The notes: generated by a model not told the origin, from the letters alone. 64,000 nt of DNA from a virus (IMGVR_UViG_3300021255_000140:1-64000); one strand, 5' to 3'. Positions 1,432-30,107 are shown, numbered from the stretch's first letter. Made by a program: numbers and translations.

Positions 1432-1501
1432 TTCTTAGATTTTTAGGATAGCATTTCTTGCTTTTAATTACATTTGGTTAACAATGTTTAACATTTGTTT
1501 G

Positions 1502-1602: not shown

Positions 1603-1620
1603 CTATGGAAATTCTTATCT

Positions 1621-12229: not shown

Positions 12230-12964
12230 ATGAAAAAAGAAACAAAACAAGTAAAAAGTTTTAATGAATTTGCAAACGATGTAACAACAGCAAAGAAAGA
12301 GAAGAAAAACATTTCAATTTCTCAAGAAGTTTCAAAAATTGAAAGTACCGACAAATTAGAAAAGTCAAAAGTATTTGCAGAAGTGAAAACCTTTTTATTT
12401 CCTTTGTCTTTTGATGATTCCGAAATTCGTAAAACTTACGGAGCTTTGCCAGATGATGTATTAAATATTATCATTGACGCAAAACGCAAAGAATTTGAAA
12501 AAGCACACAAAGACGAAATACAAAAGTTTGAAAATCTGAATTTTGAAACAGTTTCGGCACGTTTGCAAGAAAATGAAAAACTTTTACAAAATTTGTTATC
12601 GGTTTGTGGTGTTTCAGAGTTAAGAAAAGAAAATTATATTAACTCCAAAAATGAAGTTATTATTTATCATTCAATACAAAACGATAAAAACGAGTACACC
12701 AGACAAACACTAAAAGAAGTTTTTAACGGCAAAGAGTTTATAACTGAAGTATTTGTTGAATATTTGCCACAAACGACGACAAACATTTTAAGAAGTATCC
12801 GTTATTTTAATATTCTTCTTGATGCAAAAAAACGATTACTAAACCAGACAAAAGACGTAAAACGTATTTTAACAACACTTGAGGAAGTAACCAGAAAAGC
12901 AAAAGAAAACGGATTCACGCTTGAAACTATTCAGGAACAAATAACAAAAGTATTTGCAGACTGA
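12230..12964 (+). CDS. Hypothetical protein, first early gene
   Basis: 244 aa AT-rich ORF with own promoter and terminator. Confidence 0.75.
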   Translation: MKKETKQVKSFNEFANDVTTAKKEKKNISISQEVSKIESTDKLEKSKVFAEVKTFLFPLSFDDSEIRKTYGALPDDVLNIIIDAKRKEFEKAHKDEIQKFENLNFETVSARLQENEKLLQNLLSVCGVSELRKENYINSKNEVIIYHSIQNDKNEYTRQTLKEVFNGKEFITEVFVEYLPQTTTNILRSIRYFNILLDAKKRLLNQTKDVKRILTTLEEVTRKAKENGFTLETIQEQITKVFAD

Positions 12965-12973
12965 AAAATAACT

Positions 12974-13012
12974 AAAGCGGTGCAAATGTAACAATTTGCA
13001 CCGCTTTTTTTT
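12974..13012 (+). terminator. Intrinsic terminator
   Basis: AAAGCGGTGCAAAT-gtaaca-ATTTGCACCGCTTT followed by T-run. Confidence 0.85.
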
Positions 13013-13463
13013 ATTGTGTTATTCTCAAAAAAATCTGGATATTTGGAACAAAGCGAAAAAGCTTTGAAATGTTCGACTCATTTTATCCAACAAAAACAAA
13101 AAGAAAGCACAGCGGTGCTTATTCTCTTTTGATGTAGAAATACAATTTATTCTTATTGATTGTGCGCTTTTGCGGATGCAGCAGTTTGCAGCGTTCGCAG
13201 ACTTTGAAGAACTGACAGAGATTTTGAAAAATATTTCTCCGTCGGTTTTTCTTTTGCACGATTTTCTTTGACAGATTGAGACAGACCATAATTGAATTTT
13301 ATCATTTGGCGAATCTGAAAGAAACGTAAACCGTACAATTTGTAATTGTCCGTTGTTTCTGGATGGTTCGTCGCTGCCTGATTTTTCAGGCGATCACGGC
13401 ACGCAGGCTTGAAAGACAGTCTGCGTGTCACAAAATATTTTCTAACCACTAAAATTCACAATT

Positions 13464-13574
13464 ATGCTATTTGAAATTTCCGAAAGACTTCTTCAGCAAT
13501 TTGGAGAAGAGAGAATGATTGAGCTCGTTTGCTCGTCAAGTGTCGAACAATTAGAAAATTTTGCCTATGAGTGA
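13464..13574 (+). CDS. Small hypothetical protein (36 aa)
   Basis: MLFEISERLLQQFGEERM..., preceded by hairpin and AATTATG leader like the downstream genes. Confidence 0.45.
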   Translation: MLFEISERLLQQFGEERMIELVCSSSVEQLENFAYE

Positions 13575-14025
13575 AAAAACTATTTCCTCCGCTCTCATGC
13601 AGCAATGGGAGCAGGAGGCCATCGCCCAGAAAATCCCGTACACAGAGTTCGGAGAGTTTTTGAGGATGAAAGAAAGAAACTACCGGCTGAACCTCAGTAC
13701 GAAAAATCGTGTCGAGGTTTTTGCCAGCGGTGCGCAAAACAAGTTTACCGAAATCGGAAACAAAATTGCGTATGAGAAAATCATGCAAATCCCGGCCGCA
13801 GAGAGAGCCGTGAAAATTGCCAAATTCAGTTTTGAGGAACTGAGAAAAAAATCCTCGCGTGGTTTCTGCGACGAACAGCAGAAAGAAAATTTTCTTTCGG
13901 AGAGAGAATACTGGTTCTCACACCTGAAGGAGAGAATGAGAGATTTGAAACTCTCAAAGGAATTTCTTGCAGATTTCGGTCTGGACTGGAAAGAGTGCAA
14001 GAAGTTTGCTTTCAGTGCGGTGTAA
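13567..14025 (+). CDS. Hypothetical protein
   Basis: ORF track, start moved to ATG 13567. Confidence 0.7.
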   Translation: MSEKTISSALMQQWEQEAIAQKIPYTEFGEFLRMKERNYRLNLSTKNRVEVFASGAQNKFTEIGNKIAYEKIMQIPAAERAVKIAKFSFEELRKKSSRGFCDEQQKENFLSEREYWFSHLKERMRDLKLSKEFLADFGLDWKECKKFAFSAV

Positions 14026-14062
14026 AAACCGCCTGAGAGCCTCAACCTAAAAACTTTCAATT

Positions 14063-14281
14063 ATGAGAAAATTATTTGTCTACGCTGCGGGAACTCTGTT
14101 TCTCGCACCGCTTTCCGTGGCTTTGTGCTGCGAAGGTTTTTGCGCTGCCGTTTTCTGCGTGGTGTACGGTGTTTTCCTCTGGTATTCTCCGAAGTTCTCA
14201 CCGAAAGCGAGAAAGTTCTGGCGGGAGTTCTACAAAGTGAACCTTGAGGCGCTGCGTGAATTTGAAACCAGAGTACGATAA
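14063..14281 (+). CDS. Small membrane protein
   Basis: 72 aa, two hydrophobic segments then basic tail. Confidence 0.65.
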   Translation: MRKLFVYAAGTLFLAPLSVALCCEGFCAAVFCVVYGVFLWYSPKFSPKARKFWREFYKVNLEALREFETRVR

Positions 14282-14366
14282 TTCAGCAGTACGAAAATTC
14301 CAGAGTACGATAATTCGGCAGTACGATAATTCAGCAGTACGAAAAATCAAGGCAGTACGAAAATTC
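14268..14366 (+). repeat. Tandem 16-bp repeat, core AGTACGA(T/A)AA
   Basis: AGTACGA at 14272, 14288, 14304, 14320, 14336, 14354 (spacing 16,16,16,16,18). Confidence 0.9.
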
Positions 14367-14423
14367 CCAGTTGGTTTGCACCATCTGGGAGTACGATAAA
14401 TCTAAACAATAAAAAATACAATT

Positions 14424-14651
14424 ATGAGAAAATCAATGAGACTGTTCTGCGGAATTGTTCTGCATCCGGTGAGAGTTGTCGCGATGAAATTTTATCGCAG
14501 AGGCGAAAATCTGGAACTCATGTACAGCGCCAGAGAATTACAGAAAAAGAAGAATCACAGACGGATGCACGAGATGAGCGACGTGACAAATACGGCGTAC
14601 ACGGAATCTTCTTTGTACAACGATTTGCTGCGCGGTGCTCCTCGATGGTGA
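14424..14651 (+). CDS. Hypothetical protein
   Basis: 75 aa, array leader. Confidence 0.65.
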   Translation: MRKSMRLFCGIVLHPVRVVAMKFYRRGENLELMYSARELQKKKNHRRMHEMSDVTNTAYTESSLYNDLLRGAPRW

Positions 14652-14721
14652 CAAAAGACTGTCGGAGAAATAAGATTTCCCGGCAGTACGAAAAATGTCT
14701 AATGGATAAAATTTCAAGATT

Positions 14722-14898
14722 ATGAATTATTACGCAAAAAGGAAAGAAGAAGCACGCAGACAGGCTATAGCGTGGCAGTCGGAACAATCCGAAAAGAGTT
14801 TGTCTTACATGGAAATTGCGGAACAAAGCGAATGTTTTGAAAATTTAGGCCGCAGATACGGACTGCTGACGGAATTTCGTGAGAATGGAATACTCTGA
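14722..14898 (+). CDS. Small phage hypothetical protein (58 aa)
   Basis: Hand translation MNYYAKRKEEARRQAIAWQ...GRRYGLLTEFRENGIL; below ORF-track cutoff. Confidence 0.75.
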   Translation: MNYYAKRKEEARRQAIAWQSEQSEKSLSYMEIAEQSECFENLGRRYGLLTEFRENGIL

Positions 14899-14959
14899 GG
14901 AGACTGCGCACGGATGAGAGTCCGTGGGCAGTACGATAATTTCTAAAAACCATTCAATT

Positions 14960-15436
14960 ATGAACACAAGATTTGAAAACTACATTGAGAAACTTACGCC
15001 TGCAAAGCAAATGCTGGCGAGGGAAGCCGTTCAGGAATTTCTGCACGGAGAGTCAGAAAGCGTAGAACTTCTGACTTCGTCAGAAATGATTTTCAAAAAG
15101 ATGCGTTTTCTCTCCGCTGAGGATGAGGAAAAATCCTATGTTGTTCTGATGAAGAACAACTTCAGATGTATTGATGTCGTGAAAATCGCTGACGGATTTC
15201 TGGATGCGAGTGCTTTTGACGTGCGCAAAATCCTGCGTGAAGCGTTGCTCAAGAATGCAACGTGCCTGGCTATCGTTCACAACCATCCGTCGGGAAACAA
15301 GACTCCGAGCCTTCAGGATAATGAAGTCACGAAGCGTGTGAGAAAAGCCTGCGAGACAATGCGCATCCATTTCATTGACCATGTCATTGTCGCTGGCAAA
15401 GATTACTATTCCTATCGTGAAAACGGAATAGTGTAG
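14960..15436 (+). CDS. radC: RadC-like JAB/MPN domain protein
   Basis: E...HNHPSGNKTPSLQD and DHVIV motifs. Confidence 0.9.
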   Translation: MNTRFENYIEKLTPAKQMLAREAVQEFLHGESESVELLTSSEMIFKKMRFLSAEDEEKSYVVLMKNNFRCIDVVKIADGFLDASAFDVRKILREALLKNATCLAIVHNHPSGNKTPSLQDNEVTKRVRKACETMRIHFIDHVIVAGKDYYSYRENGIV

Positions 15437-15498
15437 AAAAATTTCCCATGATGTGAAAATCGTGGGGAGTACGATAAATCTGATAAATTTTTACGATT

Positions 15499-15711
15499 AT
15501 GACAAGATTTTTGTTTTCGCTATGGCGTGTAGAGAACGGCCACAAGAATGTAGAGAGCCACGAAGAAAGTTTTGAGTCTTGCGCTGATGCGATGATGAGG
15601 GCACGTTCCATTTTGAAAGATGCAAAAAGAGACGGATGCGGTATTCAGATTGACCTCTACGAGAAACTTCCCGCTAACAGCGGATGGCGCCATGCCGTTT
15701 CCTATCAGTAA
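15499..15711 (+). CDS. Hypothetical protein
   Basis: 70 aa, array leader. Confidence 0.7.
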   Translation: MTRFLFSLWRVENGHKNVESHEESFESCADAMMRARSILKDAKRDGCGIQIDLYEKLPANSGWRHAVSYQ

Positions 15712-15775
15712 ACAGACTTCTCACAGATTGGATTCTGTGGGGAGTACGATAATTATTCACTAAACTTTAGAAATT

Positions 15776-16126
15776 ATGGAAATTAGCAAAATTAAATTGT
15801 ACGATGGAGTTTGCCACGTCATCTTCACCGGAAAGAACTATTTCTTTTTCTCACAGTTCTACGGCTACATTGCTATTGCTGAACGCTCAGAGAGAAGTAT
15901 AGAAAACATTGGTAAGAGAGAAGACAACTTGCAAGAGTTTGTTATCTACTCTGGCAACACACAACTTCCTGACGGGATAGAAAAAGACTTTTTTGCGATT
16001 GCAGAAAAGTTTATCAAGAAAAACGAGCAGAGGTATCTTCCGGTCACCTGCAAGTTTGAGGAAAAGACAGTTGATCTCAACAAGTGTTCCGTCACAGTTT
16101 CCTACAATCTCAACCGCTTTGGTTAA
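15776..16126 (+). CDS. Hypothetical protein
   Basis: 116 aa, array leader. Confidence 0.7.
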   Translation: MEISKIKLYDGVCHVIFTGKNYFFFSQFYGYIAIAERSERSIENIGKREDNLQEFVIYSGNTQLPDGIEKDFFAIAEKFIKKNEQRYLPVTCKFEEKTVDLNKCSVTVSYNLNRFG

Positions 16127-16188
16127 ACTCTTGGCAGTACGAAAATAAACTTTCGTGCCGCCGCGATATTATTCAAAATTATGATATT

Positions 16189-16476
16189 ATGTACGAAAAC
16201 ATTATTGTTACTGTTTGGTCAAATTACAACGGATTGGCTGGAAGAAAAATTAAAAATGTCCGTGACGCAATCGTAAGCGATTCTTTCTCGGTTTGGGATG
16301 ATGAAAAAATAAAACGTTGCTTTAATTTAGGTAACGGAACGAGAAAAGATTTTGAGAGATTTATCAAAAGCAACAAAGAGAAGGTTATCCCGACGGAAAA
16401 GTTTTGGAAAATAGTGGATTCTCTGCCAAACTCGCAGTTGTATTATGATTTTGTCCGTGATATTCTTCATTACTGA
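16189..16476 (+). CDS. Hypothetical protein
   Basis: MYENIIVTVW..., start moved to ATG after leader. Confidence 0.7.
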   Translation: MYENIIVTVWSNYNGLAGRKIKNVRDAIVSDSFSVWDDEKIKRCFNLGNGTRKDFERFIKSNKEKVIPTEKFWKIVDSLPNSQLYYDFVRDILHY

Positions 16477-16538
16477 CAAACTTCCTGGCGGTTCAGCGAC
16501 CGCCGGAAGTACGAATTATCAACCAAATAAAATCAATT

Positions 16539-17204
16539 ATGAGAATAAGCAAAGAAACTATTGAAACTCTGAAAGCTCAGGGTATCAATGTACGTTGGTT
16601 TCCAGAGGAAACTTACGAAGAGTTCAAGAAAACTCAGTGGGAAAAAGAGTACAAACGCTGGTTTGACTACAGCAAAGATTCTTGCAAGGAACTTAACCCA
16701 CCTCGCAACGATGGTTCGTATCAGAGTTGGAGCTTCGAGACTCTTGCAGAGTACGAGGAACACATCAGAAAGTTCTGCGACCAGATTATTGACAGACACT
16801 GCGACCCCTACGAGTTCACAACTTTGTACGTCGAACACGATGGCGGTCAGATGCTTGTCAAGAAAGAAAACGTGAAGTCGAAAGAAATCACGGTTGAGTA
16901 TGTTCAGAAACTTGTTGAAAAGGACCGAAAAGTCTATGCGGGTACTTACGGAAAGTTCGCAATGTGTATGCAGAAACTTTGCAAGGAGCGCGGACTGACA
17001 AATAAGTTCTGCGTCTATCCCACTACCTACGGAATCGGTGTCTGGATCTTCTACAACTTCAATGCAGACAAACACATTGCGCAAGTCGAGGAAATAATGA
17101 AAGAACGAGACATTGAGTATTACAACGAATACTCCGACCATCGTTGGGTGTATCGTTTCAAAGTTTCCAAGAAGCGTGAGAACATCGAAAGAATGTGCGC
17201 CTGA
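16539..17204 (+). CDS. Hypothetical protein
   Basis: 221 aa, array leader. Confidence 0.75.
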   Translation: MRISKETIETLKAQGINVRWFPEETYEEFKKTQWEKEYKRWFDYSKDSCKELNPPRNDGSYQSWSFETLAEYEEHIRKFCDQIIDRHCDPYEFTTLYVEHDGGQMLVKKENVKSKEITVEYVQKLVEKDRKVYAGTYGKFAMCMQKLCKERGLTNKFCVYPTTYGIGVWIFYNFNADKHIAQVEEIMKERDIEYYNEYSDHRWVYRFKVSKKRENIERMCA

Positions 17205-17269
17205 AACTCTCCTGACTCTTGCAGACTTCACAATCTGCGAGAGTACGATAAACTTCAAATTCTTACATT

Positions 17270-17434
17270 ATGGCACGTATGAGCTTAAACAAACTTGTGG
17301 CTATAAACGCATTTAACGCGAATAACAACATCATAGCCACGACAACGAACAATGTTTTGAAACTTCGCTTGCAAGCGGAAAACGAGCGTCTTATGAAACG
17401 CTATCCATCCTTGCGCACAACTTTGTACGTATGA
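17270..17434 (+). CDS. Small hypothetical protein (54 aa)
   Basis: Hand translation MARMSLNKLVAINAFNANNN...; flanked by two AGTACGA hairpins. Confidence 0.65.
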   Translation: MARMSLNKLVAINAFNANNNIIATTTNNVLKLRLQAENERLMKRYPSLRTTLYV

Positions 17435-17496
17435 ATGCAAACTTCCTGCGAAATAGACTTTGCAGGAAGTACGATAAACTTCAAAAACGTATAATT

Positions 17497-17901
17497 ATGG
17501 AAGAAAAGATTAAGTCAATGACAAACAATGACGGAATAAACTTTATGTTCCGCTTTGATGATTACGAAGTCTTAGGCATCGAGGATAGAGGCGAAAAGAA
17601 TTGGTTCTACACAGTTGTTCGCTATCACGGCTCACAAAAAGTCTGTGTGTTATCAATGCCAAGAAAAGAGTCTGGCTGCAAGCCGTCACACTTCGGACAT
17701 CTTGAGTATTATGCACTTCTCGCATCAATAGAGTTTGCAGGTATCAAAGTTGTATGGACGAGGCAAGGCTGGCCGATGTGGCCTGTATGGTATTGCGACG
17801 ACAAAGAGAAACTTTCAACATTCCGCAACAAGTACAGAGAAATCATTGGAAAGTACGGTTTTGACGAAAGAACTATTGAGCGCAATCGTTATAGCAATTA
17901 A
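17497..17901 (+). CDS. Hypothetical protein
   Basis: MEEKIKSM..., start moved to ATG after leader. Confidence 0.7.
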   Translation: MEEKIKSMTNNDGINFMFRFDDYEVLGIEDRGEKNWFYTVVRYHGSQKVCVLSMPRKESGCKPSHFGHLEYYALLASIEFAGIKVVWTRQGWPMWPVWYCDDKEKLSTFRNKYREIIGKYGFDERTIERNRYSN

Positions 17902-17984
17902 GTTTTTGTATTGCTTTATTTAGTGTATTCGGGTGGCGCAGAGTTATATCTGTGCTGCCTACAAAAGTTTAATAAAAAAGCATT

Positions 17985-18233
17985 ATGGGTAAATTTTCAT
18001 CAAAAGAGATTCTGCTAACAGCAGAACAGAAGCAAAAACTCATCGACCATTCCAACACATATTGGAAAAAGTACGATGTTAGACTATTACAGGTTTATTG
18101 CATGAACAGTCCAGTAGATTCGTTCATCGTCCAGTACAAAACTTTCATAGATACGAATAAGCCTGAATTTGAAAGATTTTCTTGGAGTTGCCCTCAAAAG
18201 GAAATGGAAATGATAATTGGACCATTTTCATGA
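17985..18233 (+). CDS. Hypothetical protein
   Basis: 82 aa, array gene. Confidence 0.7.
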   Translation: MGKFSSKEILLTAEQKQKLIDHSNTYWKKYDVRLLQVYCMNSPVDSFIVQYKTFIDTNKPEFERFSWSCPQKEMEMIIGPFS

Positions 18234-18323
18234 TTTGCTAATTTAGTGTGTACGGGCGTGGTCAAAGTGATTTGGCTGCGCCTTCTAAGTTTAACCAATA
18301 TAACTTTTAATTAATTCAAAATT

Positions 18324-18605
18324 ATGGAAATAGTGAAGAAAGAGGAAGCCAGAAACTTCCTCAACATCGGAGATTGCCTGTACAAACTTGGGAGTGACGG
18401 AAAGATTAAGGGAAGTCCTATTACGGGAATAGATGTTTCTTTTGACACCTTTGATGAAAACCACGTTCAACGCTCAGTGCGCTACGAATTTGAGCATGAC
18501 AATCTTTTGGATGCCATTTTGCACGAAGATTTGGGAACTGCATGGTTCTCTTCTAAAGAAGAAATCATACAGGCAGTCTTGCGCAAGAACGGGATGAAGA
18601 TTTAA
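18324..18605 (+). CDS. Hypothetical protein
   Basis: 93 aa, array gene. Confidence 0.7.
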   Translation: MEIVKKEEARNFLNIGDCLYKLGSDGKIKGSPITGIDVSFDTFDENHVQRSVRYEFEHDNLLDAILHEDLGTAWFSSKEEIIQAVLRKNGMKI

Positions 18606-18668
18606 TCTTTCTTTTCCGCGGGGAGGAATCCTCACGGAAAAACAAGTATTAACGAAAATTCAATTTAT

Positions 18669-18962
18669 ATGACGAAACGTGAAAAAATTAAGGACATTTA
18701 CCAGACATTGAAATCCGGCTTGAGAATGTGCGAAATGGTTGAGACAAAAAACCTCAGCGGAGAAGTTGTCGGTTTTCATCAGGGACTATCTTTCTCGTGT
18801 GACGATGAGTACATTTATTTTCTCGGTTCTGGAAGTTGGGCAGTAAAAGCGAGCTTGAAAAAATTAGAGTTCGAACTTGACGGCTGCAATCTTGACATGA
18901 TTGTTACTGAAAGTGAATTTGAAAAAAGGTCTGGGCAAAAATTCTTCGGGTGGAGAATCTGA
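18669..18962 (+). CDS. Hypothetical protein
   Basis: 97 aa, array gene. Confidence 0.7.
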   Translation: MTKREKIKDIYQTLKSGLRMCEMVETKNLSGEVVGFHQGLSFSCDDEYIYFLGSGSWAVKASLKKLEFELDGCNLDMIVTESEFEKRSGQKFFGWRI

Positions 18963-19024
18963 CTATCCAAATAGAGAGCCTTAAAACTCTCTGTTTGACT
19001 ATTATTCACTAAAATTCAATGATT

Positions 19025-19468
19025 ATGAAGACTTTAGAATTGACAAGAGTTGGCGAACACAGAATGGACGGAAATCTTTATCAAGATTCCAAAGGATATT
19101 ATTATGTGGATTGCCATGATGAGCCAAAGAACAACGAAACTTCAGTCGTTTATCGTCTTTCCCCTGCAACAGATTCCGAGGGCGAGCCAGACGAAATGAT
19201 TGAGTGTAAAATCGTAATCGCAAATCCACGTTCTGAACGTGAAGAGCGTGAGAGAGCGTTTAGGTTTGATTACATGATGCTTTCACGCATGCAGACGGAC
19301 TGCAAGTATTACGAATCTGCAAGTCATTACAACAATGCGCACTGGCAGACTGCAAAAGAAATGATTGAGAGTATGAAAGAGCATTGGAATAAGATTCCCG
19401 ACGACCTGAAGCCCGAATGGATTTCTTGGGAAGAGATTCTTAAGTACGAGAAGAAGTTCTCTGCCTAA
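19025..19468 (+). CDS. LPD11 (large polyvalent protein-associated domain 11)-like protein
   Basis: C-terminal FDYMMLSRMQTDCKYY...W..IP...KPEWISWEEI..YE pattern. Confidence 0.7.
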   Translation: MKTLELTRVGEHRMDGNLYQDSKGYYYVDCHDEPKNNETSVVYRLSPATDSEGEPDEMIECKIVIANPRSEREERERAFRFDYMMLSRMQTDCKYYESASHYNNAHWQTAKEMIESMKEHWNKIPDDLKPEWISWEEILKYEKKFSA

Positions 19469-19526
19469 AACTTTGGGGAGCGCAACAACTCCCCATAGTT
19501 CCAACAAAACAATAAATTCAATAGTT

Positions 19527-20015
19527 ATGGAAGAAATCAGATTAACAGCAGAACTGAAAAAGAACTGCGAAACGAACCGAGAGAAACTTTCCGAACTGAT
19601 GAAAGTGTATGACCTTTGTGCGCTTGGCTACGATATGCAGGAGCAACGCAGCAAAGACGTTTACAACAAAGTCTTGTCAGAAAACGAGTTCTACGCAAAA
19701 CGTGACTGCGGACGCTGCGAAATTAAAGTTGGTGAGAGGATAACAGACGAAAAGTTTGACTTCCTCCTTTCCGATGAAGACTTTACCCGTCTGCAAACTC
19801 TGGCTCGTCCAATCTTTGTAGCCGAAGGTATAACGGATGAAAACGGCTACTTCATTGAGAATTGGGTGACAAAAAAGGTTTCTGCGCGAAAAGATTTGGT
19901 AGAGTTTATCATCCAGAACATCGTGCCGAGCGAATTGCGCGAAACATTCTGGGAGGCGCGTCAAAACATCGTGCAAACAGATAAACTTATCTCAATCATG
20001 CGCTCAGTCGCTTAA
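19527..20015 (+). CDS. Hypothetical protein
   Basis: MEEIRLTAEL..., array gene. Confidence 0.7.
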   Translation: MEEIRLTAELKKNCETNREKLSELMKVYDLCALGYDMQEQRSKDVYNKVLSENEFYAKRDCGRCEIKVGERITDEKFDFLLSDEDFTRLQTLARPIFVAEGITDENGYFIENWVTKKVSARKDLVEFIIQNIVPSELRETFWEARQNIVQTDKLISIMRSVA

Positions 20016-20085
20016 CTACAAAACTTCTATGGTCCTTGCCGACTATGGAAGTACGATTATTAACCCCGCAAAAAAACAGAAGGCT

Positions 20086-20256
20086 ATGAGTAAAAGGAAA
20101 TATGCTTATTTCATCTTCCACACGGGCGAGGATGAATTTGAACAGACAGAAAGCTGGCAGCGTGTATTTACTCGCTACAATAGAAACGAAAGTGCTGCTA
20201 TCTACGGGATGCCAAACTATGACGGAGCGCAACTTGAAATAATAATGAGCAAGTAA
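20086..20256 (+). CDS. Small hypothetical protein
   Basis: MSKRKYAYF..., follows AGTACGA hairpin. Confidence 0.65.
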   Translation: MSKRKYAYFIFHTGEDEFEQTESWQRVFTRYNRNESAAIYGMPNYDGAQLEIIMSK

Positions 20257-20317
20257 CTATCTGGTGTTTGTGAACCGAACTTCACAGCCACCACCAAAAC
20301 TTTTAATTCTTACAATT

Positions 20318-20539
20318 ATGGTAACAAATAGAGAACTCCTGCAGAACAAGGTTAAGCGTATTAACGAGAAAACAAACATGGATTTAAGCATCGAAGGTTA
20401 TAACGATGAACTTTACTTGGTGAGTGAAAATAATGTTTTGTTTGAAAACATGGAAGTATATCGCACAGAAGACCAAATGTTTGAATACCTTGCAGGTCTG
20501 GAAGATGCGATTGACTACTTTCAAAGGCAGAAGGTGTAA
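20318..20539 (+). CDS. Hypothetical protein
   Basis: MVTNRELLQ..., array gene. Confidence 0.65.
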   Translation: MVTNRELLQNKVKRINEKTNMDLSIEGYNDELYLVSENNVLFENMEVYRTEDQMFEYLAGLEDAIDYFQRQKV

Positions 20540-20578
20540 CAACCTCCTGTCTTTCCATAACTTTTTAATTCACAGATT

Positions 20579-20809
20579 ATGGCATACACTATCAAAGGTT
20601 TGGCGAAAGCCAACGATTGCGAGACACACGATATGTATGGACTCGCAAGTTTATGGAGTTATTGGCTGGCTTGCAATGTTTGCGACCGCCAGAGTATCAA
20701 CGACTTTAAGCGTTTGCGCAAAGCTGACCGTCAGCAAATGTTGAATTTCCTTGCAAGTGACGCTGCATGGGCAGACATTCACACACACATTTGCGCAAAT
20801 CTATTCTAA
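20579..20809 (+). CDS. Hypothetical protein
   Basis: 76 aa, array gene. Confidence 0.65.
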   Translation: MAYTIKGLAKANDCETHDMYGLASLWSYWLACNVCDRQSINDFKRLRKADRQQMLNFLASDAAWADIHTHICANLF

Positions 20810-20865
20810 TCGGAGTGCGGAGGTTTGTCTCTCCGCATTCTACAACAAACCAAAAGATTTCAATT

Positions 20866-21231
20866 ATGACAGATGTAAAAAATGAAAGAGTGTACTTAGC
20901 ACTCAGGACTGTTGCAAAAAACTTGATAGAGCTTGCAAATCTTGGTCTTCCCAAAAATCAAAACATGAAAGTCATGAGTTTCTTTGCAACATCACGTTCT
21001 GGCGAGCATAAAGCGGAAATCATCATACACGGCTTAAAGAAAGAAAATTTAATGAGTCTTGTTTCTGGATGCAATTCGTATGTTTCCCGTCGGCAAACAA
21101 TGTTTGGATTAGGTATCGGCTATCGTGTACCGCTGGACGATATTATGCGACATATCATACTTTGTGATGATGATAGGTACGAAAGCAAAATTTGTCCAAA
21201 AGTAGCAATCTTCAACAAGAGTGAGACGTAA
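20866..21231 (+). CDS. Hypothetical protein
   Basis: MTDVKNERVY..., array gene. Confidence 0.65.
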   Translation: MTDVKNERVYLALRTVAKNLIELANLGLPKNQNMKVMSFFATSRSGEHKAEIIIHGLKKENLMSLVSGCNSYVSRRQTMFGLGIGYRVPLDDIMRHIILCDDDRYESKICPKVAIFNKSET

Positions 21232-21270
21232 AAGTCACACTCTTGTCAAATTAACCATAAGTTTTCAATT

Positions 21271-21486
21271 ATGTGTGATTACAACATTCCTGTATTTGCG
21301 ATTCGTCGCCAAAAGTCAGAAAAAGAAACCGATTGTGAAAGATTTTGGTACTACAAAACCAAAGAAGAAGCAGAAGATGTAGCGAAAAAGTTGAGCGGCT
21401 ACAAAGTTTCCGTTGAAAGATGGTGGTCAAATGTTCCGTTTGATGAGTTAGTCAAGGGTAATAGAACGAGATACCCTAATCTTTAA
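21271..21486 (+). CDS. Hypothetical protein
   Basis: 71 aa, array gene. Confidence 0.65.
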   Translation: MCDYNIPVFAIRRQKSEKETDCERFWYYKTKEEAEDVAKKLSGYKVSVERWWSNVPFDELVKGNRTRYPNL

Positions 21487-21542
21487 GGATTTGGCAGACT
21501 TGACACTGCCAATCCACAAGTGTTCACTTAAAACTTACGATT

Positions 21543-21818
21543 ATGGCAAATTTAGCAGACCAATTAAGAAAAGAGTACATCGAAAAATGCGATTTTCAGA
21601 AGTATCTCGATTACGTTGCAGAGCGAATCCGGGCTGGGAAAAACGAAGTGTGGTTTGGGCTACCTTGGAACGACAACTGCAAGGGCATCCAATACTACAC
21701 CGACATCAATCTTGCTGAATCGCTCGTCCTTAAATTCCGAGACGAAGGATTCCGTGTTGATGAGCTTCGCGCAAATGGATTCAGTGGCAGGTTACTACAA
21801 TTTGAAGTCACACTCTGA
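21543..21818 (+). CDS. Hypothetical protein
   Basis: 91 aa, array gene. Confidence 0.7.
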   Translation: MANLADQLRKEYIEKCDFQKYLDYVAERIRAGKNEVWFGLPWNDNCKGIQYYTDINLAESLVLKFRDEGFRVDELRANGFSGRLLQFEVTL

Positions 21819-21882
21819 GGTCTGTGCTGTCTGCAAGAAATTACAGATGGCACACTAATTGTCTCACTAAAACTTAATCATT

Positions 21883-22086
21883 ATGGGTAAAATTCAAATC
21901 ACAAACGATTCTGGGCAAGTCTATCCAGACGGAACCATTATCAGCGTAGACCAACTTTTCAGAGACTACAAAGACACTCTGACTGAGAAAAATATGAATA
22001 CCTACCACTGGCTTTGCCGTATTCCAATTCCTTCAGCAATAGACTTTATTGCAAAGGCTTGGGGATTCAATTACAAGTTTGTATGA
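21883..22086 (+). CDS. Hypothetical protein
   Basis: 67 aa, array gene. Confidence 0.65.
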   Translation: MGKIQITNDSGQVYPDGTIISVDQLFRDYKDTLTEKNMNTYHWLCRIPIPSAIDFIAKAWGFNYKFV

Positions 22087-22155
22087 AACTCTTTTCAAGA
22101 CCAAAGCCGAGCAACATCGGCTCTGGTTACTATGTCTAACCAAAATGATTGAATT

Positions 22156-22686
22156 ATGGAAAAGTATTTGAAAAGACTATGCAACGCAATTCTCAAAGGC
22201 AGATTCAACGATGAGAATTACAGAAGAAGAAATTCGTGGTATGGTCGCGAAATTGATACACAGCCACTATTCTGCTCCTATGCGCTAATCGGATTTACCG
22301 TTTCTGTCTATAACTTGAACGGAAGTCATTTCTGTGATGTGAAATGGGATGGTGACTTGAAAGAGTTGACCATTGACGATGTTCCGTGGAAAGAATATCT
22401 AAACATTCTCTATCTTGAAGACTTCGGCATCACATCAAATGGCGACGGAGAACTTGAGTGCTATACTGATGCAGGCGAGGACATGATTATCTTGCTTGAC
22501 AAAGTACGGAAAAAGAATCTGCAAGAGTACATTGACAACTTCGACATCAACGAAAGAGTCCTTATGTGGTGGTCATACGGCAGGCAAGAGACCGGAACTC
22601 CATTTGCCAACGTGAAAGAGCATTACGAGGACTACGAAGCCTATTTGAGAAAACTACAGAAAGTATGTAGCAAAATGCCGTACTAA
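22156..22686 (+). CDS. Hypothetical protein
   Basis: 176 aa, array gene. Confidence 0.7.
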   Translation: MEKYLKRLCNAILKGRFNDENYRRRNSWYGREIDTQPLFCSYALIGFTVSVYNLNGSHFCDVKWDGDLKELTIDDVPWKEYLNILYLEDFGITSNGDGELECYTDAGEDMIILLDKVRKKNLQEYIDNFDINERVLMWWSYGRQETGTPFANVKEHYEDYEAYLRKLQKVCSKMPY

Positions 22687-22760
22687 CCTCTTTTACTCCC
22701 TACGCCCTGACCAACGTAGAGGGTACAAATACATTATCAACCAAAAGAAATGAATCAATT

Positions 22761-23012
22761 ATGACAAAAATCAATTCACTCGAACATCTTAAAGAAGTCT
22801 GCAACCCTTACGAGCCAGAGGACTTCTTCATCAGTCTCAACTTCGGCCTGCGCTCATCAAAGTGCATCACCTACGATGAAGACACCGACACGTTCTTTGT
22901 CCTCAACGAAATCGACGACACGGAAGACGAGTTCAACTCAGAGCAAATCATGGACGATAACCTGACAGACATCGGGAAGGCCATCCGTGCCGGACAGTTC
23001 TATCACTACTAA
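22761..23012 (+). CDS. Highly acidic small protein
   Basis: 83 aa, D/E-rich (YDEDTD, EIDDTEDE). Confidence 0.7.
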   Translation: MTKINSLEHLKEVCNPYEPEDFFISLNFGLRSSKCITYDEDTDTFFVLNEIDDTEDEFNSEQIMDDNLTDIGKAIRAGQFYHY

Positions 23013-23077
23013 AACACGGAGCGCAGGACTGAAACCCTGCTCTCCGGCCATTCACTAACCAATTAAGACAAAAGATT

Positions 23078-23494
23078 ATGGGATCAATTAAAATTTCAAA
23101 AGAAAGTTTGGATGCTTTCAAGAATGGCGAGAGAATTATCCCTGCGCCAATAGACAACAAGAATCTGTTGGAAGACCCGTTTGAGAATGAAGTCTTTGGA
23201 AACTTCTACGCTTGCTGCAATCATCGCAAGGATGGGTTAAGACATCTTATAGGAATGAAAGATGAAGCCTTTGTAGAAGTATGTTGGAGGTTCGGCTCAA
23301 ACCAGATAGAAATACTTGTTGTTGCCGTCAATCCCTGCGAAGACTTTGAAGAAACAAGCAAAGAAATCTATGAGGAATACAAGAAAGAGTTTTCTTCATG
23401 GCAATGCGAGGATAACCCGGGGCTTGTAGTGAAGTTCAGTGGTGAAAAGGAACGTCGCTTATTTGTCAGCTTCTTCTTCAAAGACGAAGACTAA
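23078..23494 (+). CDS. Hypothetical protein
   Basis: 138 aa, array gene. Confidence 0.7.
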   Translation: MGSIKISKESLDAFKNGERIIPAPIDNKNLLEDPFENEVFGNFYACCNHRKDGLRHLIGMKDEAFVEVCWRFGSNQIEILVVAVNPCEDFEETSKEIYEEYKKEFSSWQCEDNPGLVVKFSGEKERRLFVSFFFKDED

Positions 23495-23560
23495 TCTCTC
23501 TTTACCTGCAAAGTCTCTACAAACATTGCAGGTACGATATTCACAAATAATGATACAATT

Positions 23561-23851
23561 ATGACAAAGATTCAGTTAGCAACAAAGATTTGGGTGATGT
23601 GGTGCTACAACTTCGACCGCCCAGAAACTTTCATCGGTTACATCTGTGAAAAGACTGGTAAACAATACCTCAAAGACCATCTGCTTTCAAAGTGGAACCA
23701 TTTGTATGAAACTTTCGGCTACCGCTCTGTGATGAATGACTTTTACTCAGGCATCGATACAGACTTACAGAACGCGCTCCTTGACTACGCTTTCAACATC
23801 TATGCACCAAGAGGAATGAAGAGCATTTACGTAAAGTTCTGCAATGCTTAA
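23561..23851 (+). CDS. Hypothetical protein
   Basis: 96 aa, array gene. Confidence 0.7.
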   Translation: MTKIQLATKIWVMWCYNFDRPETFIGYICEKTGKQYLKDHLLSKWNHLYETFGYRSVMNDFYSGIDTDLQNALLDYAFNIYAPRGMKSIYVKFCNA

Positions 23852-23921
23852 ACCTTTCAAACTCTCACTTAAGTAACATTCGGTGAGAGTCCTATTGTAT
23901 AACCATTAAAATTCAATTAAC

Positions 23922-24323
23922 ATGGAAATCAAAGTAAACATCCCAAAGAACGATTACGTTCAGCCAAAGGAAGTCAGACAATGGGTCGTACAAGGTATTT
24001 GCGAGGCTTTCTTATCGCATTGCTGTTGGAGCATCTTCCATCCGCACAACGATGGCTTTTATCGTCAGGCAACAACTTCTATCGTTCGCCATCGAAACTC
24101 CAAAGAGTTTTACGGATTCCATCATGGGGCACTGCTCGATTCTGACGAAAGTGTAAGATTCAACGGAGAGGAAATGAAAACCGCATTCATCGCATTGATA
24201 GACGCTGGCTACCACATCTTCAAAGTTTATCAGTACGGAAGTTGGCTCGGATTCAAATGCTCTAAAAAACCACACATTGACAATGGGTGCGAAGTCTTCT
24301 CGTTCAATGATTTCATAGATTAA
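23922..24323 (+). CDS. Hypothetical protein
   Basis: 133 aa, array gene. Confidence 0.7.
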   Translation: MEIKVNIPKNDYVQPKEVRQWVVQGICEAFLSHCCWSIFHPHNDGFYRQATTSIVRHRNSKEFYGFHHGALLDSDESVRFNGEEMKTAFIALIDAGYHIFKVYQYGSWLGFKCSKKPHIDNGCEVFSFNDFID

Positions 24324-24401
24324 GCCTATTGCCAACAAACTGCCAGAACATAAAACTCTGGCGGTTTTCTTTTTATGTCTAACCAATAAAATTCAGAAAT
24401 T

Positions 24402-24749
24402 ATGGAAAGAACCAATTCAATCACACTAACATTTGACTTCGACCGAATACTGAAAGGATATGTTACGGATGAAGAAGGTCTCATTGCCGAAACTGTAAGG
24501 GAAACGATGAGCAAAGAGAAAAAAGTCCTTGAATGGTACACCGAAAAGTACCCTACGGACGAGTTTGGAAAGAAAATCAACGAAACACTCACATGGTTGG
24601 GACTTCTCAACTCAATGCGTGACCATAAAGAAGTATATGAAACCATCGGTGTCAGTGACAGTATTGTCAGGGAAAGGTGCTTTGCAAAGTTGGCAAGCCT
24701 TATGTTTGTTCCGTATGACGTAATCTACAATCTCTGGCTATCGTACTAA
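24402..24749 (+). CDS. Hypothetical protein
   Basis: 115 aa, array gene. Confidence 0.7.
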   Translation: MERTNSITLTFDFDRILKGYVTDEEGLIAETVRETMSKEKKVLEWYTEKYPTDEFGKKINETLTWLGLLNSMRDHKEVYETIGVSDSIVRERCFAKLASLMFVPYDVIYNLWLSY

Positions 24750-24817
24750 ACTCTCGCAGACCATTTCGTTTTAATCAACGGAATGGACACAATTTATTAA
24801 CTCTAAAATTCAATGAT

Positions 24818-25078
24818 ATGAAAGTTTATTTAATGCAACAAGAGAGCAAAGTGGACGGAGATATGCTATTCAACGTAGTGCCATGTTCCAATGAAGAAAC
24901 TGCAAAAAGAGAGATGCAGAAAGAAATTAGAACTCTTCTTAACGAAAGTCATTTCATCGCCTATAATGACAGACCAGATGATTTTATTTTGGAGCAGACG
25001 GAAACATCTTACTACATTGAAGATACTTGCGACGACTACTACGAACACATTTGGATTGAGGAGAAAGAGATTCTTTGA
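24818..25078 (+). CDS. Acidic hypothetical protein
   Basis: 86 aa, array gene. Confidence 0.7.
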   Translation: MKVYLMQQESKVDGDMLFNVVPCSNEETAKREMQKEIRTLLNESHFIAYNDRPDDFILEQTETSYYIEDTCDDYYEHIWIEEKEIL

Positions 25079-25141
25079 CTACTGCCTTGCATGACAGAAA
25101 TGTCATACAAAGCGCAATTTTAACCGATAAAGAATACAATT

Positions 25142-25720
25142 ATGAGAAAAGAAAAAGCACCTATTATGAGAAAAGGTTTTGACCTGTACGCACTGAATAT
25201 TGAGTTTGCCGACCTGCTCCGTAAGCACGATGACGATATGGATGTGAACGGAGAGAGCCGCCCGAAGTTCTTAGAAATACTCAAAGACGCAGAATCTGGT
25301 AATGCCGATGTCGCATCAATCTGTAATTTTTGGGCAACAGCATTCAACGCTTACGATGAACTATGCTCCTTGCACCAAAATCTGCGTGAAACATTTGATT
25401 GGTATTGTGGTGCATTTACGACCCCATATCCTAACAACGAGTATGACTTATATATTGGCGAATCTGAAGACGCAACCTTTGTTCCAGTTAGAGATAAAGA
25501 GCCTGACGAAGAAAGAAGTATTTGGCTGCGTTCAGGCATAAGGCTTACTGCTTCAAAGGATGATATTGAAAAAGTTATTCAGGGAGATAGTGGAACATTC
25601 TACAAACTCATACAAAAAGGGCAGTACAGATTATGCGGAACTCATATTCCTTCTTGCGAAATAGACGAATACAACGAGGAATATGGTACTAATTTCAAGA
25701 GTGATGATGTCACACTCTGA
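25142..25720 (+). CDS. Hypothetical protein
   Basis: 192 aa, array gene. Confidence 0.7.
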   Translation: MRKEKAPIMRKGFDLYALNIEFADLLRKHDDDMDVNGESRPKFLEILKDAESGNADVASICNFWATAFNAYDELCSLHQNLRETFDWYCGAFTTPYPNNEYDLYIGESEDATFVPVRDKEPDEERSIWLRSGIRLTASKDDIEKVIQGDSGTFYKLIQKGQYRLCGTHIPSCEIDEYNEEYGTNFKSDDVTL

Positions 25721-25785
25721 TGTTTCAGTGTGCGCAATTAATCTTGCGCCACTGACTATTGTCAAATCATTAAAATTCAATTAAT

Positions 25786-26262
25786 ATGGAAATCAAAGAT
25801 TTAATTATGGTTGCCCGCAACTGCCAGGAACAACTTATCAATGCGCTCACAGAGTATGTCCGCGAACATGGTGAGGAAATGAGCGATTATTTCTACAATG
25901 AGTTTGGGATGTACGAAGAGGACGAGGAAGGTGTGAAGATTACCCATGTACTCGACACATCCGACATAGGTTGCTCCTTTGCCCGCCAATTCAATGTCAA
26001 CGATGATAACTTGAAAGACATCGACCGGCATGACGAAGGCTTTGAGATTTTTGACAAACTGGAAGAGTCTTTCCACTATGCTACATATTTGGCCTTCTAT
26101 ATTGTCAGGGATGCCGACGGTAACGAGGATTTGAAGTATTATTGCTTCTACAACGACGGAGTATGTTATCAAGAAGATTCAGAACCTGACCATGACAGTG
26201 TTGAAAGTCTTTCGCTTGACGAATTACGTTACATCTACGAAGCAATCATTAAAAGTGAGTAA
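25786..26262 (+). CDS. Highly acidic hypothetical protein
   Basis: 158 aa, very D/E-rich. Confidence 0.7.
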   Translation: MEIKDLIMVARNCQEQLINALTEYVREHGEEMSDYFYNEFGMYEEDEEGVKITHVLDTSDIGCSFARQFNVNDDNLKDIDRHDEGFEIFDKLEESFHYATYLAFYIVRDADGNEDLKYYCFYNDGVCYQEDSEPDHDSVESLSLDELRYIYEAIIKSE

Positions 26263-26325
26263 ACTTTATCTGTAAGCAGTTTTGCGACTGCTTGCGGAGC
26301 GTTTAATTTATAAAATCAAAAAATT

Positions 26326-26787
26326 ATGGCAACATTACAGAAGATTTGGTCCGAACCGAATCCGGACAAAGAGCAGATGATTACTGAACTGCATGAGTTT
26401 GTAACAGACTCCAAGAATGACTATGCTCTTACCACACCGGTCATAGTCAATACAGAGGACGGCAAAACTTTGGAGGTAAAGTATTTTGCCCGTGACATAG
26501 ACCGTAATGACATTTTTTGTATGGACAAGGAGTGGGGTGACCCTTACGAGGGCAGTATCTACGTCATGCGGGAACTTACGGTTGAGTCTGTGCGGAAAAT
26601 TTACAAGTCCATAAAGTCCCAAGAAATTGATAATGGATGGGACTGGCGCGAACACGCAATCGATTTGTTAAATGAGCTCCACCCTGAAATTGAGAACGAA
26701 GAGTTCATTTTTGACTTTGTGGGCGAATACTGGATGAATCTCGCCACGGATTCTGAAAACATTGCAAAGTTTGAACTGACACTTTGA
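26326..26787 (+). CDS. Acidic hypothetical protein
   Basis: 153 aa, array gene. Confidence 0.7.
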   Translation: MATLQKIWSEPNPDKEQMITELHEFVTDSKNDYALTTPVIVNTEDGKTLEVKYFARDIDRNDIFCMDKEWGDPYEGSIYVMRELTVESVRKIYKSIKSQEIDNGWDWREHAIDLLNELHPEIENEEFIFDFVGEYWMNLATDSENIAKFELTL

Positions 26788-26854
26788 CATGCATACCATT
26801 TTCGTACAGCCACGAAAATGGTAACTGTTTTTAACCAATAAATATTTTTCAATT

Positions 26855-27328
26855 ATGATTATCGCATTTTACAAAGTTAACAATTCGCTCAACTACGAGC
26901 GACATGAGTTTGACACCGACAGACCTGAGACCATCATTGAGAAATTGCAAAGACTTCCAGAAGACGAAGTGAAGCTCTATGATGGTGACAACTATAGTTG
27001 GCAGGGGAAAGAGCCTACGCTTGCAGACTTCGAGTACGACTACAACAACGAGGAACTTGATGGAGACTGGTGGTGCATCATTATCAACTACACAAAGCAG
27101 AAAGAAAAGAAGCAGACTCTCGAAGGAATGGTGAAAAAACACGATGTTCCAGATGCTATTTTTACGAAAGAACAGACAGAACTTTTGAATGAGGCCATTC
27201 TTTCCCTCATGGAGAAAAATAATTTTATGTGGAAGATGTCTGCCAATGGCAAAGTTAAGGCTATGCTACTGGAAGAAAACGGGAAATTGAGACGACTTCA
27301 GGAAACGCTCATCGACTATTTCTGTTAA
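26855..27328 (+). CDS. Hypothetical protein
   Basis: 157 aa, array gene. Confidence 0.7.
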   Translation: MIIAFYKVNNSLNYERHEFDTDRPETIIEKLQRLPEDEVKLYDGDNYSWQGKEPTLADFEYDYNNEELDGDWWCIIINYTKQKEKKQTLEGMVKKHDVPDAIFTKEQTELLNEAILSLMEKNNFMWKMSANGKVKAMLLEENGKLRRLQETLIDYFC

Positions 27329-27394
27329 AACATTGGGAGAATATGGTTGGTTCCATATCTCCTACAAATTATCAACAACTTAATATTTTTGATT

Positions 27395-27724
27395 ATGGAA
27401 AATTTAACGCCTATGATGAATCAGTATTACGATTTGAAAAGCAAGCACCCTGATGCTCTGCTCTTATTTCGCTGTGGTAATTTTTATGAGACTTGGGAAA
27501 ATGATGCCGTTGAAATTTCGAAGGTTCTCGGCATAACGCTGACAAAAAGCAACAAGCAAAAGAACATTGACGGAATGCCGTTAAGAATGGCAGGATTCCC
27601 TTATCATGCCCTTGACACTTATCTGCCAAAACTCATAAGAGCAGGAAAGAGAGTATGCATCTGCGACCAGCTTGAAGCCCCGAGGACTGCCGTCAAACGA
27701 AGTGTGACGGACATGATCAAGTGA
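27395..27724 (+). CDS. Stand-alone MutS domain I (mismatch-binding) protein
   Basis: [28 protein letters not shown]...[30 protein letters not shown], only 109 aa. Confidence 0.9.
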
Positions 27725-27795
27725 ATTTGAACAAAACTACGTACTTTTGCCGTCAGATTAGCAGTCTGCACGGCAAGCAATAACTTAAACCAAGC

Positions 27796-27960: not shown

Positions 27961-28063
27961 AATGTCATTATTTGCGTGTTTATTGATAATAATTCGTATC
28001 TTTGCATTGTTTTGTTTACTAACCCGTTTAGGGTTCTTTTTTCATAAAATTAAAATTTAGAGT

Positions 28064-28097
28064 GTGCCGGGCGATTAACTTCGTCCGGCATTTCTTT
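28064..28097 (+). terminator. Probable intrinsic terminator
   Basis: TGCCGGGCGA-ttaact-TCGTCCGGCA followed by TTTCTTT. Confidence 0.6.
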
Positions 28098-30043: not shown

Positions 30044-30107
30044 GCGCAGGAGCGCGGAGCACGACAACTCCCGCTCCCTCTATTCTTAACAAATTTAATT
30101 ATGAATT

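Follow-up and report, generated by a model that had tools for sequence, protein, structure and literature searches.

What is the role of the hairpin that stands between successive genes in a long, one-directional gene array of a gut phage, and in which molecule does it fold? The question is raised by the virus record IMGVR_UViG_3300021255_000140, which is 103,512 bp long, has terminal repeats in IMG/VR, and whose first 64 kb constitute the window analyzed here. Between 13.4 and 28.0 kb the window holds approximately 36 co-oriented plus-strand genes that have no paralogues among themselves. Almost none of them could be assigned to a family, the exceptions being a RadC-like JAB protein and an LPD11 domain. 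An original prediction, made from the nucleotide sequence, had described the spacers as hairpin elements with a conserved AGTACGA foot and had offered three roles for them: RNA processing or stabilising sites, single-stranded DNA (ssDNA) hairpin promoters, or attC-like recombination sites. Our analysis indicates that these spacers, here called connectors, are a real, clade-wide and uncatalogued family of structured intercistronic elements in a hyperplastic accessory-gene operon.

The regular anatomy of the array was borne out. Its spacers mostly measure 56-90 nucleotides (nt), and a single hairpin of 10-14 pairs occurs in 32 of the approximately 36 spacers, from 13398 to 27777, with one further hairpin at 30049; the start of the array, previously placed at 14008, was moved to 13398. 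Exactly 30 nt are occupied by 19 of the 32 hairpins and 26-32 nt by all of them, and across five genomes the range 28-32 nt covers 75 of 88 hairpins, with loops mostly of 4, 6 or 8 nt. Stem and loop sizes thus trade off against each other while the total length stays constant. In most spacers the hairpin starts 0-12 nt past the stop codon, and it ends 18-40 nt ahead of the ATG (as ATTATG), except in one spacer with a mis-called gene start. Gene starts were revised to 17497, 20087 (from a model-matched hairpin) and about 20318 (from the spacer sequence).

Most of these hairpins, all on the plus strand, belong to a generic class in which arm sequences are unrelated and stems are not copies of one another. 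This class includes the first array hairpin (13398-13429), whose TGAAAGAC-like loop is kept in relatives, five hairpins of 30-32 nt (17931-17960, 18254-18283, 18612-18641, 18968-18997 and 19469-19500), a series of six (20262-20293, 21487-21515, 21823-21854, 22099-22128, 22694-22725 and 23017-23046), and those at 23861-23890, 24338-24366, 24761-24786, 25083-25114, 25725-25755, 26269-26298, 26794-26823, 27334-27364 and 27746-27777. An outlying generic hairpin (30049-30077, plus strand) precedes the FtsK-like gene, at a place where two relatives carry an AGTACGA-type hairpin. Loop type is specific to the lineage: UUAAUU is used nearly throughout one lineage, and GUUGCA-like or NNNNACAA loops in others, and the same stem may be kept at an orthologous place, yet with its loop switched to the type of that lineage. 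When Rfam covariance models were run on 11-35 kb, no hairpin was matched, and the sole hit above threshold was a c4-2 RNA at 31751-31827.

The AGTACGA foot, which had been thought to precede each gene, is in fact the mark of a sub-class. It was found in nine hairpins (11 including two degenerate ones), in which ACU...AGU closing pairs are followed by ACGA(A/U)AA, and two thirds of the hairpins have no such motif. A covariance model made from 27 AGTACGA-foot elements gave nine matches with E<0.01 in this genome, none of them on the minus strand and none outside 14359-20062. Hairpins matched by it are located at 14363-14392, 14658-14687, 14903-14932 (with a GAGA loop, ahead of the RadC-like gene), 15716-15745, 16480-16510 (ahead of a conserved 221-aa gene), 17215-17244, 17441-17470 and 20023-20052, the last of which shifts the next gene start to the revised position given above. 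A further hairpin matched by the model (15441-15470) has a stem shared by relatives with lineage-specific loops. The two elements that the original prediction had quoted as examples, 15716-15752 and 17441-17477, proved exact. A variant hairpin (16132-16163) contains AGTACGA within its 5' arm, another (23503-23534) has a degenerate foot (GGT-ACGATA), and a weak model match (23857-23900) lies at the generic hairpin 23861-23890; all three are on the plus strand.

Genome-wide, 20 of the 25 plus-strand copies of AGTACGA in the 103.5-kb genome fall within 13.7-20 kb, and the motif is located 25-34 nt before the ATG. Six bare AGTACGA(A/T)AA copies are arranged in tandem with a period of 16-18 nt (14272-14360, plus strand) ahead of the first AGTACGA-foot hairpin, the first copy overlapping the stop codon of gene 14063-14281; counted up to 14396, the bare AGTACGA copies number seven. 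A tandem cluster of 3-7 copies, spaced 10-41 nt, occupies the same place in 11 relatives. The foot class is not bound to position and is spread across the whole array in one relative. An in-frame AGTACGA also occurs at 13696 inside gene 13567-14025, where it encodes Ser-Thr-Lys/Arg; at least two relatives have a coding-sequence AGTACGA at the matching place, the residues are not universally conserved, and the motif may here have a copy within a gene. Searching the literature for AGTACGA returned nothing relevant, and a scan of viral contigs for three copies of it was discarded as unspecific, yielding mostly unrelated tandem repeats.

The stems are under strong structural constraint. In the alignment of the 27 elements, 98.1% of cells are paired, compared with 68% in shuffles, and there are no bulges; G.U pairs make up 15% of cells (47 cells) and non-pairs 2% (six unpaired). 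Changes on both sides were observed at nine of 12 pairs, with 99 double changes in total. Covariation, which had been proposed as a check, is strong, with a score of 0.93 versus 0.29 in shuffles (0 of 500 reach 0.93) and at most 0.21 in slid-partner controls. Since the aligned elements are mostly not orthologues, this covariation represents repeated independent solutions to one structural demand.

Several properties indicate which strand folds. It had been claimed that G-T wobbles pair on the plus strand only; the plus bias is strong, with G.T outnumbering A.C by 135:14 in hairpins chosen on the plus strand and by 30:11 (p=0.004) in a strand-symmetric search, but it is not exclusive. A strict search (perfect stems of at least 10 pairs with at most three G.T) recovered 16 array hairpins on the plus strand versus three on the minus strand, and the plus strand gives the more stable fold in 65 of 88 hairpins. 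GNRA loops account for seven of 14 tetraloops (p=8e-8), and G content is 8.6% in single-stranded parts versus 30% in stems. Sense-strand RNA fits the G.U bias, the strict strand search, the GNRA loops and the G depletion.

The phage portal protein is nearest (approximately 41%) to that of Bacteroides LoVEphage and to related Bacteroides/Phocaeicola phages, the metagenome-assembled genomes (MAGs) holding primase relatives are labelled Bacteroidales and Bacteroidaceae, the sequencing runs containing phage sequence are bovine gut metagenomes, and Bacteroidetes-type promoter boxes (TAnnTTTG) stand before several genes, several of them with TTTG 20-26 nt upstream. On these grounds the host is taken to be a rumen Bacteroidales bacterium. 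The phage is taken to be a Bacteroidales siphophage.

TAnnTTTG is the -7 box consensus of the Bacteroidetes primary sigma factor as cited in PMC7366714. On the plus strand of the array this box occurs four times in 14.4 kb versus 4.7 expected, and none was detected in the spacers between 12082 and 27384; sigma-70-like matches (52 versus 42.7+/-6.5 in shuffles) were judged not enriched. Host-type boxes were found around the array: TACTTTTG at 12082-12089 on the plus strand, with TTTG directly before it (not at -33), stands ahead of the stand-alone gene 12230-12964, and two more (27997 and 28119, plus strand) are located at the right end of the array unit. Moreover, in three of six relatives examined upstream of the array, a TAnnTTTG box pointing into the array comes right after the upstream terminator. 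Pfam scans of nearly all phage proteins revealed no RNA polymerase, sigma factor, NusG or RNase domain, and no DxDGD motif was present.

A canonical bidirectional intrinsic terminator with a 14-bp stem and a T run (12974-13007) ends the upstream unit and forms the left edge of the array unit, and two canonical terminators with T runs (28021-28035 and 28064-28091, plus strand) close it; canonical hairpins with T runs exist only at these two ends, 12974-13007 and 28021-28091, bracketing the array. Within the array, the predicted lack of a U-tract was confirmed: on average 2.3 T were counted among the 8 nt that follow the stem, five or more T are present in only five of 88 cases across the five genomes, and only three array hairpins passed a lenient terminator scan. 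As the phage uses canonical terminators elsewhere, the missing U-tract argues against termination by the array hairpins, which are unlikely to be ordinary terminators.

The second part of each spacer is a G-poor leader of 18-40 nt from hairpin to ATG (within 13430-27795, plus strand) with a TTAACCAAT / TTCACTAAA-like box. When 88 leaders were aligned on the ATG, A was found at -3 in 76 and at -13 in 78; T occupies positions -2 and -1, A occupies positions -14 to -11, and no G is conserved. These features match the Bacteroidetes Kozak-like signals of Baez et al., as cited in PMC7366714, and they are anchored on the ATG, which identifies the leader as a translation-initiation region. We discarded the idea of the leader box as a degenerate -7 box that would produce leaderless mRNAs, given that there is no conserved G and that the box fits ATG-anchored translation signals. 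In front of the array, a 26-nt CCATAATTGAATTTTATCATTTGG-like block (13287-13312) is near-invariant in six relatives within an otherwise divergent non-coding lead-in of 400-700 nt; it looks like a minus-strand leader with an ATG, but the open reading frame (ORF) behind it is not conserved and this interpretation was rejected.

To define the distribution of the connectors, relatives were collected by a primase search, which yielded 17 viral contigs and two contigs from MAGs, with identities of 43-79%. Every relative that reaches the region possesses this spaced array, located on the same flank of the primase, with AGTACGA-foot elements and the tandem cluster; layout, foot motif and cluster are retained in at least 18 contigs. 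By contrast, the covariance model had no match in 41 unrelated viral loci (0.75 Mb), in two MAGs it matched the phage contigs only, and its matches in relatives are always on the array strand. In LoVEphage, the nearest cultured relative by portal, the early genes are tightly packed and have no connectors. Megablast of the array against isolated phages gave no match, an FtsK-based scan for relatives found nothing, and the relatives suggested by RadC turned out to be unrelated phages without this architecture.

Gene content turns over rapidly within this conserved frame. Each of four complete relatives has homologues of only 3-10 of the 35 array genes listed from 13567, in scrambled order; in the flanks, the primase, a 193-aa gene and the FtsK-like gene are conserved. 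Gene 19019-19468 has 95% DNA identity to a phage whose primase is 46% identical, and the shared block begins 13 nt upstream of the ATG and extends into the following hairpin. In two genomes that are 97-98% identical, five array homology blocks end in the leader, at the ATG or no more than about 10 nt after it. Bovine-gut contigs lack entire genes, the two ends of each gap lying in leaders (18290 to 18649, 21879 to 22153, 25775 to 26320 and 15761 to 21528), and the copy number of the tandem repeat also varies; the gene-skipping joints are unlikely to be assembly artefacts because the stretches shared there are much shorter than the word used by the assembler. Gene-content breaks had been expected at the hairpin foot. 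Instead, they lie in the leader or at the ATG, scattered from approximately -34 to +8 around it, with no fixed hairpin point, which makes the leaders the crossover zone of cassette exchange and points to homologous or microhomology exchange between shared leaders rather than site-specific recombination.

Among the three roles originally offered, RNA processing or stabilising sites fit best, owing to the sense-strand G.U bias, the GNRA loops, the spacers without promoter or U-tract, and the terminators at the ends only; the comparison with T7 RNase III sites that accompanied this proposal does not extend to the stems, which have 12 perfect pairs. We thus consider, at about an even chance, that the array is an operon whose connectors work at the RNA level, being host-transcribed, punctuated by non-terminating hairpins that act in the mRNA, and recombined at its leaders. 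The region from approximately 13.0 to 28.0 kb would be one operon of about 15 kb, with host RNA polymerase reading through all hairpins, and this unit would carry the approximately 36 accessory genes, mostly of no known function, as a hyperplastic region. Each spacer would serve as a two-part connector in the mRNA. Its first part, the 30-nt non-terminating hairpin right after the stop codon, would most likely shield the 3' end of the upstream cistron after endonucleolytic cutting, or mark the cut itself; it would also isolate the next cistron from upstream structure and leave the leader unstructured. The second part, the G-poor unstructured leader with A at -3 and at -11 to -14, would let a ribosome without Shine-Dalgarno pairing start afresh on every gene. 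Because the leader is common to all cassettes, recombination between leaders would exchange single genes, deleting, swapping or importing them, and the RecT-type recombinase of the phage could carry out this exchange. The AGUACGA foot, that is, the ACU...AGU closing pairs plus ACGA, would define a sub-class of connectors.

Several observations weigh against this mechanism. The 12-pair stems are short for RNase III, and simple 3' protection would require neither a fixed 30-nt size nor lineage-specific loops (UUAAUU in one lineage) nor a 7-nt foot. The array's own promoter is not recognisable in this genome, unlike in the three of six relatives mentioned above, and the one true RNA run (Logan contigs) contains short, low-depth pieces inside ORFs only. 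Scanning nearly all proteins against Pfam, PHROG and NCBIfam produced no nuclease, RNA-binding, sigma or NusG candidate. In addition, ssDNA too tolerates G.T pairs and GNA-type loops, so that a role of the hairpins in top-strand DNA is conceivable.

The 30-nt size, the lineage-specific loops and the foot with its hairpin-free cluster point to a sequence- and shape-specific reader. Most likely, the AGUACGA foot and the bare cluster would be read by one sequence-specific factor, either a nuclease or an RNA-binding regulator. A more elaborate version, which we put forward tentatively and regard as possible rather than probable, is that the AGUACGA hairpins and the bare cluster form a post-transcriptional regulon, in which an unrecognised endoribonuclease or RNA-binding regulator of undescribed fold, from phage or host, reads the stem-foot junction of fixed geometry. 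This reader might set the timing of a subset of the accessory genes or switch them off, with the cluster as its loading site or sponge and each lineage co-evolving a loop of its own (UUAAUU, GUUGCA or NNNNACAA). The conserved proteins encoded at 12230-12964 and 13567-14025, at the head of the region, are candidates for the foot reader by position only. The predicted fold of the stand-alone protein (12230-12964; predicted local distance difference test score, pLDDT, 80) had no match in the Foldseek PDB, VIA-wide (best Z 3.7) or ESM Atlas searches, and that of the conserved 152-aa first array protein (13567-14025; pLDDT 79) had no Foldseek match.

Two rival explanations place the hairpins in transcription itself. 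A closely similar known system is that of the promoter-early stem-loop (PeSL) cassettes of T4-type phages, which combine a strong sigma-70-type early promoter with an effective terminator stem-loop (Arbiol et al. 2010, PMC2839356; Comeau et al. 2014, PMC4122927). Like the connectors, PeSLs are short stem-loop regulatory cassettes between small ORFans in hyperplastic regions, and inter-cassette recombination deletes, replaces or imports single genes; the corresponding features here are the 32 covarying hairpins, the ORFan hyperplastic region, and the indels and replacements bounded by leaders. The array differs in that its spacers (12082-27384) have no host-type promoter, its hairpins have no U-tract, its stems share no sequence, hairpin size is fixed at 30 nt, and a sub-class carries the 7-nt foot. 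A true PeSL analogue would require that AGTACGA and/or the leader box be a promoter element, to which host polymerase is redirected by a phage factor that escaped recognition (cf. T4 MotA/AsiA), each hairpin terminating the preceding monocistronic transcript. The single orientation of AGTACGA 25-34 nt before the ATG, ahead of genes, and its tandem copies at the array head, resembling stacked early promoters, are compatible with this idea, and the conserved stand-alone gene 12230-12964, which has its own host promoter and terminator and no known fold, could encode the factor. We nevertheless consider it unlikely, since the leader lacks a -7 box and a conserved G, the motif is fixed to the hairpin rather than to the ATG, the two thirds of genes without the motif have the same leader, the hairpins lack U-tracts though the phage has canonical terminators elsewhere, and no sigma factor or polymerase was found. 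Attenuation or antitermination would instead make the hairpins pause sites or weak terminators, at which AGUACGA, as RNA or non-template DNA, loads a processivity factor, as in lambda nut, RfaH ops and Bacteroides UpxY opsX; the cluster at the head would load the factor for read-through of 30 hairpins. Consistent with this, a hairpin followed by a short conserved sequence is the layout of opsX, in which a pause hairpin and a 12-nt ops occur in Bacteroides leader regions (PMC11685472), the cluster lies close to the 5' end of this unit in every relative, a T/G-rich tract follows the last cluster hairpin in several of them, and the best-folding strand is the non-template one. However, opsX (PMC11685472) is present once per operon, differs in sequence, has smaller hairpins and relies on a dedicated NusG paralogue; no NusG-like protein was found in the phage, the motif is unlike the opsX hairpin YGCGNAGCR and absent from two thirds of hairpins, 30-nt hairpins are too large for a transcription bubble, and there is no pause consensus at a fixed distance. 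Such a role is accordingly rather improbable.

The remaining explanations place the structure in top-strand ssDNA. Hairpin promoters of the N4 or Frpo type, proposed originally, find no support: no phage or virion RNA polymerase and no polymerase domain were found, the fold favours the non-template (sense) strand, and the stems are unrelated in sequence, too long for the N4 type and devoid of promoter boxes. The hairpins could also be attC-like sites for the Xer-like recombinase at 33036 in an integron-like array, or signals for priming or structure on the lagging-strand template, with an origin near 11.4-12.2 kb. Gene turnover is indeed cassette-like, the 12+6+12 shape resembles the core site of a tyrosine recombinase, this phage and relatives have a small Xer-like recombinase and an FtsK-like gene downstream of the array, and the plus strand would be the lagging-strand template if the fork moves rightward. 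Integron attC sites share with the connectors one folded site per promoterless cassette and a structure that is kept while the sequence is poorly kept. Yet no IntI is present: the recombinase scores 19.3 bits against the TIGR02249 integron-integrase cut-off of 265, and 5 kb of conserved genes (28.2-32.8 kb) separate it from the variable genes, so that the array is not beside it. The generic-class arms are unrelated in sequence, and the perfect stems have no bulged or extrahelical bases, no AAC/GTT cores of the R''/R' kind (RYYYAAC / GTTRRRY) and no R/L boxes; one class has ACT...AGT as its foot, and the other has no foot. Joints and homology ends fall over the leader and ATG and not at one phosphodiester, the fold is that of the sense strand, no HUH enzyme was found, and the one-per-gene placement beside stop and start argues for a role in expression. 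We therefore regard ssDNA sites of either kind as highly improbable.

Returning to the RNA-level operon, two further systems are instructive. In T7 and T3 early mRNA, the hairpins of the RNase III sites (R0.3-R1.3) stay at the 3' end after cutting and stabilise the message. As is proposed for the connectors, these sites separate genes on one long early transcript of the host polymerase; like the connectors, they have no U-tract. They are, however, irregular stems of about 20 bp, or about two helical turns, with an internal loop and related sequences, five per genome, whereas the array has approximately 32 perfect stems of 10-14 bp with unrelated sequences. REP/BIME elements are also extragenic palindromes of about 30-35 nt just past the stop codon, able to protect the upstream mRNA, with a short conserved head beside the stem; REPs are copies spread by a RAYT transposase, whereas the stems here are not copies, and Pfam scans of the phage proteins revealed no HUH (Y1) transposase domain. 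Ordinary intrinsic terminators differ from the array hairpins by the direct U-tract, and true examples flank the array. Overall, the array is a promoter-less variant of the stem-loop cassette theme of T4-type phages, with a conserved foot motif in addition.

Expression signals of Bacteroidota phages are almost unmapped, although such phages dominate gut and rumen viromes. A connector made of a fixed-size hairpin and a Shine-Dalgarno-free leader would show the requirements of such a host for the expression of many unrelated genes from a single transcript, and it might be used directly as a polycistronic expression part in Bacteroides. Cassette shuffling at a shared regulatory sequence, known from T4-type coliphages, appears to work in an unrelated phage group without a cassette promoter. 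The 7-nt foot and its tandem cluster point to a sequence-specific factor that could be retrieved with an RNA bait; if the AGUACGA regulon exists, it would constitute a novel mode of RNA-protein recognition that suits hosts without Shine-Dalgarno pairing.

Beyond the array, the phage encodes a T4-type large terminase, an SPP1-type portal, a D5-type primase, RecT, methylases and two tyrosine recombinases, and a 2,537-aa protein without family match is taken to be the tape measure. The large terminase (1495-4371, plus strand) shows weak Hint and homing-endonuclease matches over residues 115-368, ahead of its Terminase_6N domain, and probably contains an intein. Repeated TTTGTTCATT-like units (11420-11545), located in the AT-rich gap that separates the primase from the rightward genes, are possible origin iterons. 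To the right of the array, an FtsK/SpoIIIE-type translocase (30108-31445, plus strand) is located near the small Xer-like tyrosine recombinase (33036-33866, plus strand), a pair that recurs after the array in relatives as judged by gene size and position. Between them, the c4-2 antisense RNA match (31751-31827, plus strand; 53.9 bits, E 1.8e-9), of the P1/P7 immI type, lies ahead of a KilAC/ANT gene (31847-32767), of which a second ANT paralogue exists at 61179-62003 (minus strand). Next to this c4/antirepressor module, the FtsK-like and Xer-like pair may be a dimer-resolution or integration module. The N-terminal 137 aa of the protein encoded at 38674-39672 (minus strand) match Tad3, a Thoeris inhibitor (E 2e-20); therefore, anti-defence genes are present in accessory regions. 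Further along the genome (78118-81367, minus strand), a reverse transcriptase gene adjoins a 445-aa gene whose last 56 aa have 57% identity to a small ORF at 79584-79907 (genome coordinates), and this locus looks like a diversity-generating retroelement in the tail region. Finally, a relative whose primase is 47% identical sits in a contig of 181.7 kb (CAJODY010000001.1, from a Bacteroidaceae MAG of red deer) whose length far exceeds that of the phage; this relative may be an integrated prophage and would then provide both a host and an inducible system.

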